Assembly: GCA_017938425.1 (NCBI GenBank)
Contig: JAGBBQ010000086.1
Location: 1-56,295 of the forward strand
Direction of reading: 5' to 3'
Length of the DNA: 56,295 bases
Source: Clostridia bacterium
GTDB lineage: Bacteria; Bacillota; Clostridia; Oscillospirales; CAG-272
Below, a report on this DNA, generated by a model with database tools, continues. The stretch itself is not shown here.

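Follow-up and report, generated by a model that had tools for sequence, protein, structure and literature searches.

Conservation of the flavoenzyme and its reduced clusters

The ADPS-like flavoenzyme encoded by g1 (24817-26253), the first gene of the operon, is 82-94% identical across metagenome-assembled genomes (MAGs) whose annotations place them in Clostridia, Bacilli, or Thermoguttaceae/Planctomycetia (L079-L132), whereas its operon partners at the same loci are only 35-60% identical. These identities imply either extreme constraint or else a recent horizontal spread. A reduced cluster was found at other loci (L138, L148, L153, L154, and L160-L162), consisting of g1, its Fe-S partner g2, the FGGY kinase, and split EtfB/EtfA, with or without IolB, and with no isomerase, kinase, or aldolase. 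Its linked genes encode TRAP transporters, an enolase-superfamily protein, Fe-ADH, or a LarA-type racemase. This suggests that the reduced cluster processes a small acid, imported into the cell, by a route of its own.

Candidate glycan-degrading proteins

Directly 5' of the homologs of g7, the MurQ-like gene, are large cytoplasmic proteins that belong either to DUF6259 (~980 aa; L035, L041, L043, L050, L053, L066, and L070) or to one of two families without Pfam domains, of 682 aa (L006, L021, L023, L034, L036, L040, and L077) and 696 aa (L063, L067, and L069). The latter two share a GG(R/T)TTEWF motif, and one relative, at L081, unites DUF5696, DUF6259, and GH101 domains. The DUF6259 and ~690-aa proteins are probably unclassified glycoside hydrolases.

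Two paralogous proteins are encoded upstream of rpiR (see table), and both lack a signal peptide and any match in Pfam or NCBIfam. Near the N-terminus both carry the motif YEQFGAVGDGKTDD..AI..AH, which is typical of right-handed beta-helix glycan depolymerases, and the PDB yielded a single match for them, the gp150 tailspike of phage Phi92 (E = 4e-6). These paralogs could act as intracellular glycanases supplying the operon; among the cluster loci compared, they adjoin the cluster in this window only.

Each copy of the repeat unit in the spacer beside rpiR has at its end the hairpin AAGAGGCACTGATTAAACAGTACCTCTT and, after it, a T-run, and two of the three copies have in common a 115-nt sub-repeat at 97% identity. 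The unit had no credible match in Rfam.

Features of the window
Feature	Coordinates	Description
Aromatic amino-acid biosynthesis cluster	4566-13848	houses the fusion ORF
Fusion ORF, 412 aa	9059-10297	shikimate dehydrogenase N-terminal domain fused to shikimate kinase domain
Paralogous proteins, 492 and 535 aa	19973-21451 and 21471-23078
Three copies of ~300-bp unit	23079-23819	spacer from upstream genes to rpiR; start spacing 280 and 317 nt
g7	30949-32631	two-SIS-plus-lid protein
Promoter-like site, strong	41252-41280	precedes the four-gene set
Four genes downstream of operon	41291-44998	MarR-type regulator, 431-aa protein, zinc-ribbon protein, GNAT-domain protein
Choloylglycine hydrolase family protein	50547-52058	CBAH domain at residues 189-497

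Other genes in the window

The four genes downstream of the operon possibly form a small operon of their own. The 431-aa protein has weak similarity to alcohol-acetyltransferase, and six membrane segments are predicted in the zinc-ribbon protein. The choloylglycine hydrolase family protein carries an N-terminal extension of ~190 residues with no Pfam match.

A bacterial family with the architecture of GKRP

The fused two-SIS-plus-lid architecture of g7 defines a bacterial protein family (L007-L078) found in Clostridia and Lentisphaeria/Victivallales MAGs. Two database relatives, P0039 and P0111, reach ~850 aa, ~290 aa beyond the length of g7, and P0039 additionally contains a PfkB domain. This fusion is the architecture of the eukaryotic glucokinase regulatory protein (GKRP), which has been proposed to descend from a murQ gene that was duplicated and fused (bioRxiv 10.64898/2026.05.08.723886), and the bacterial family bears on that idea of its origin.
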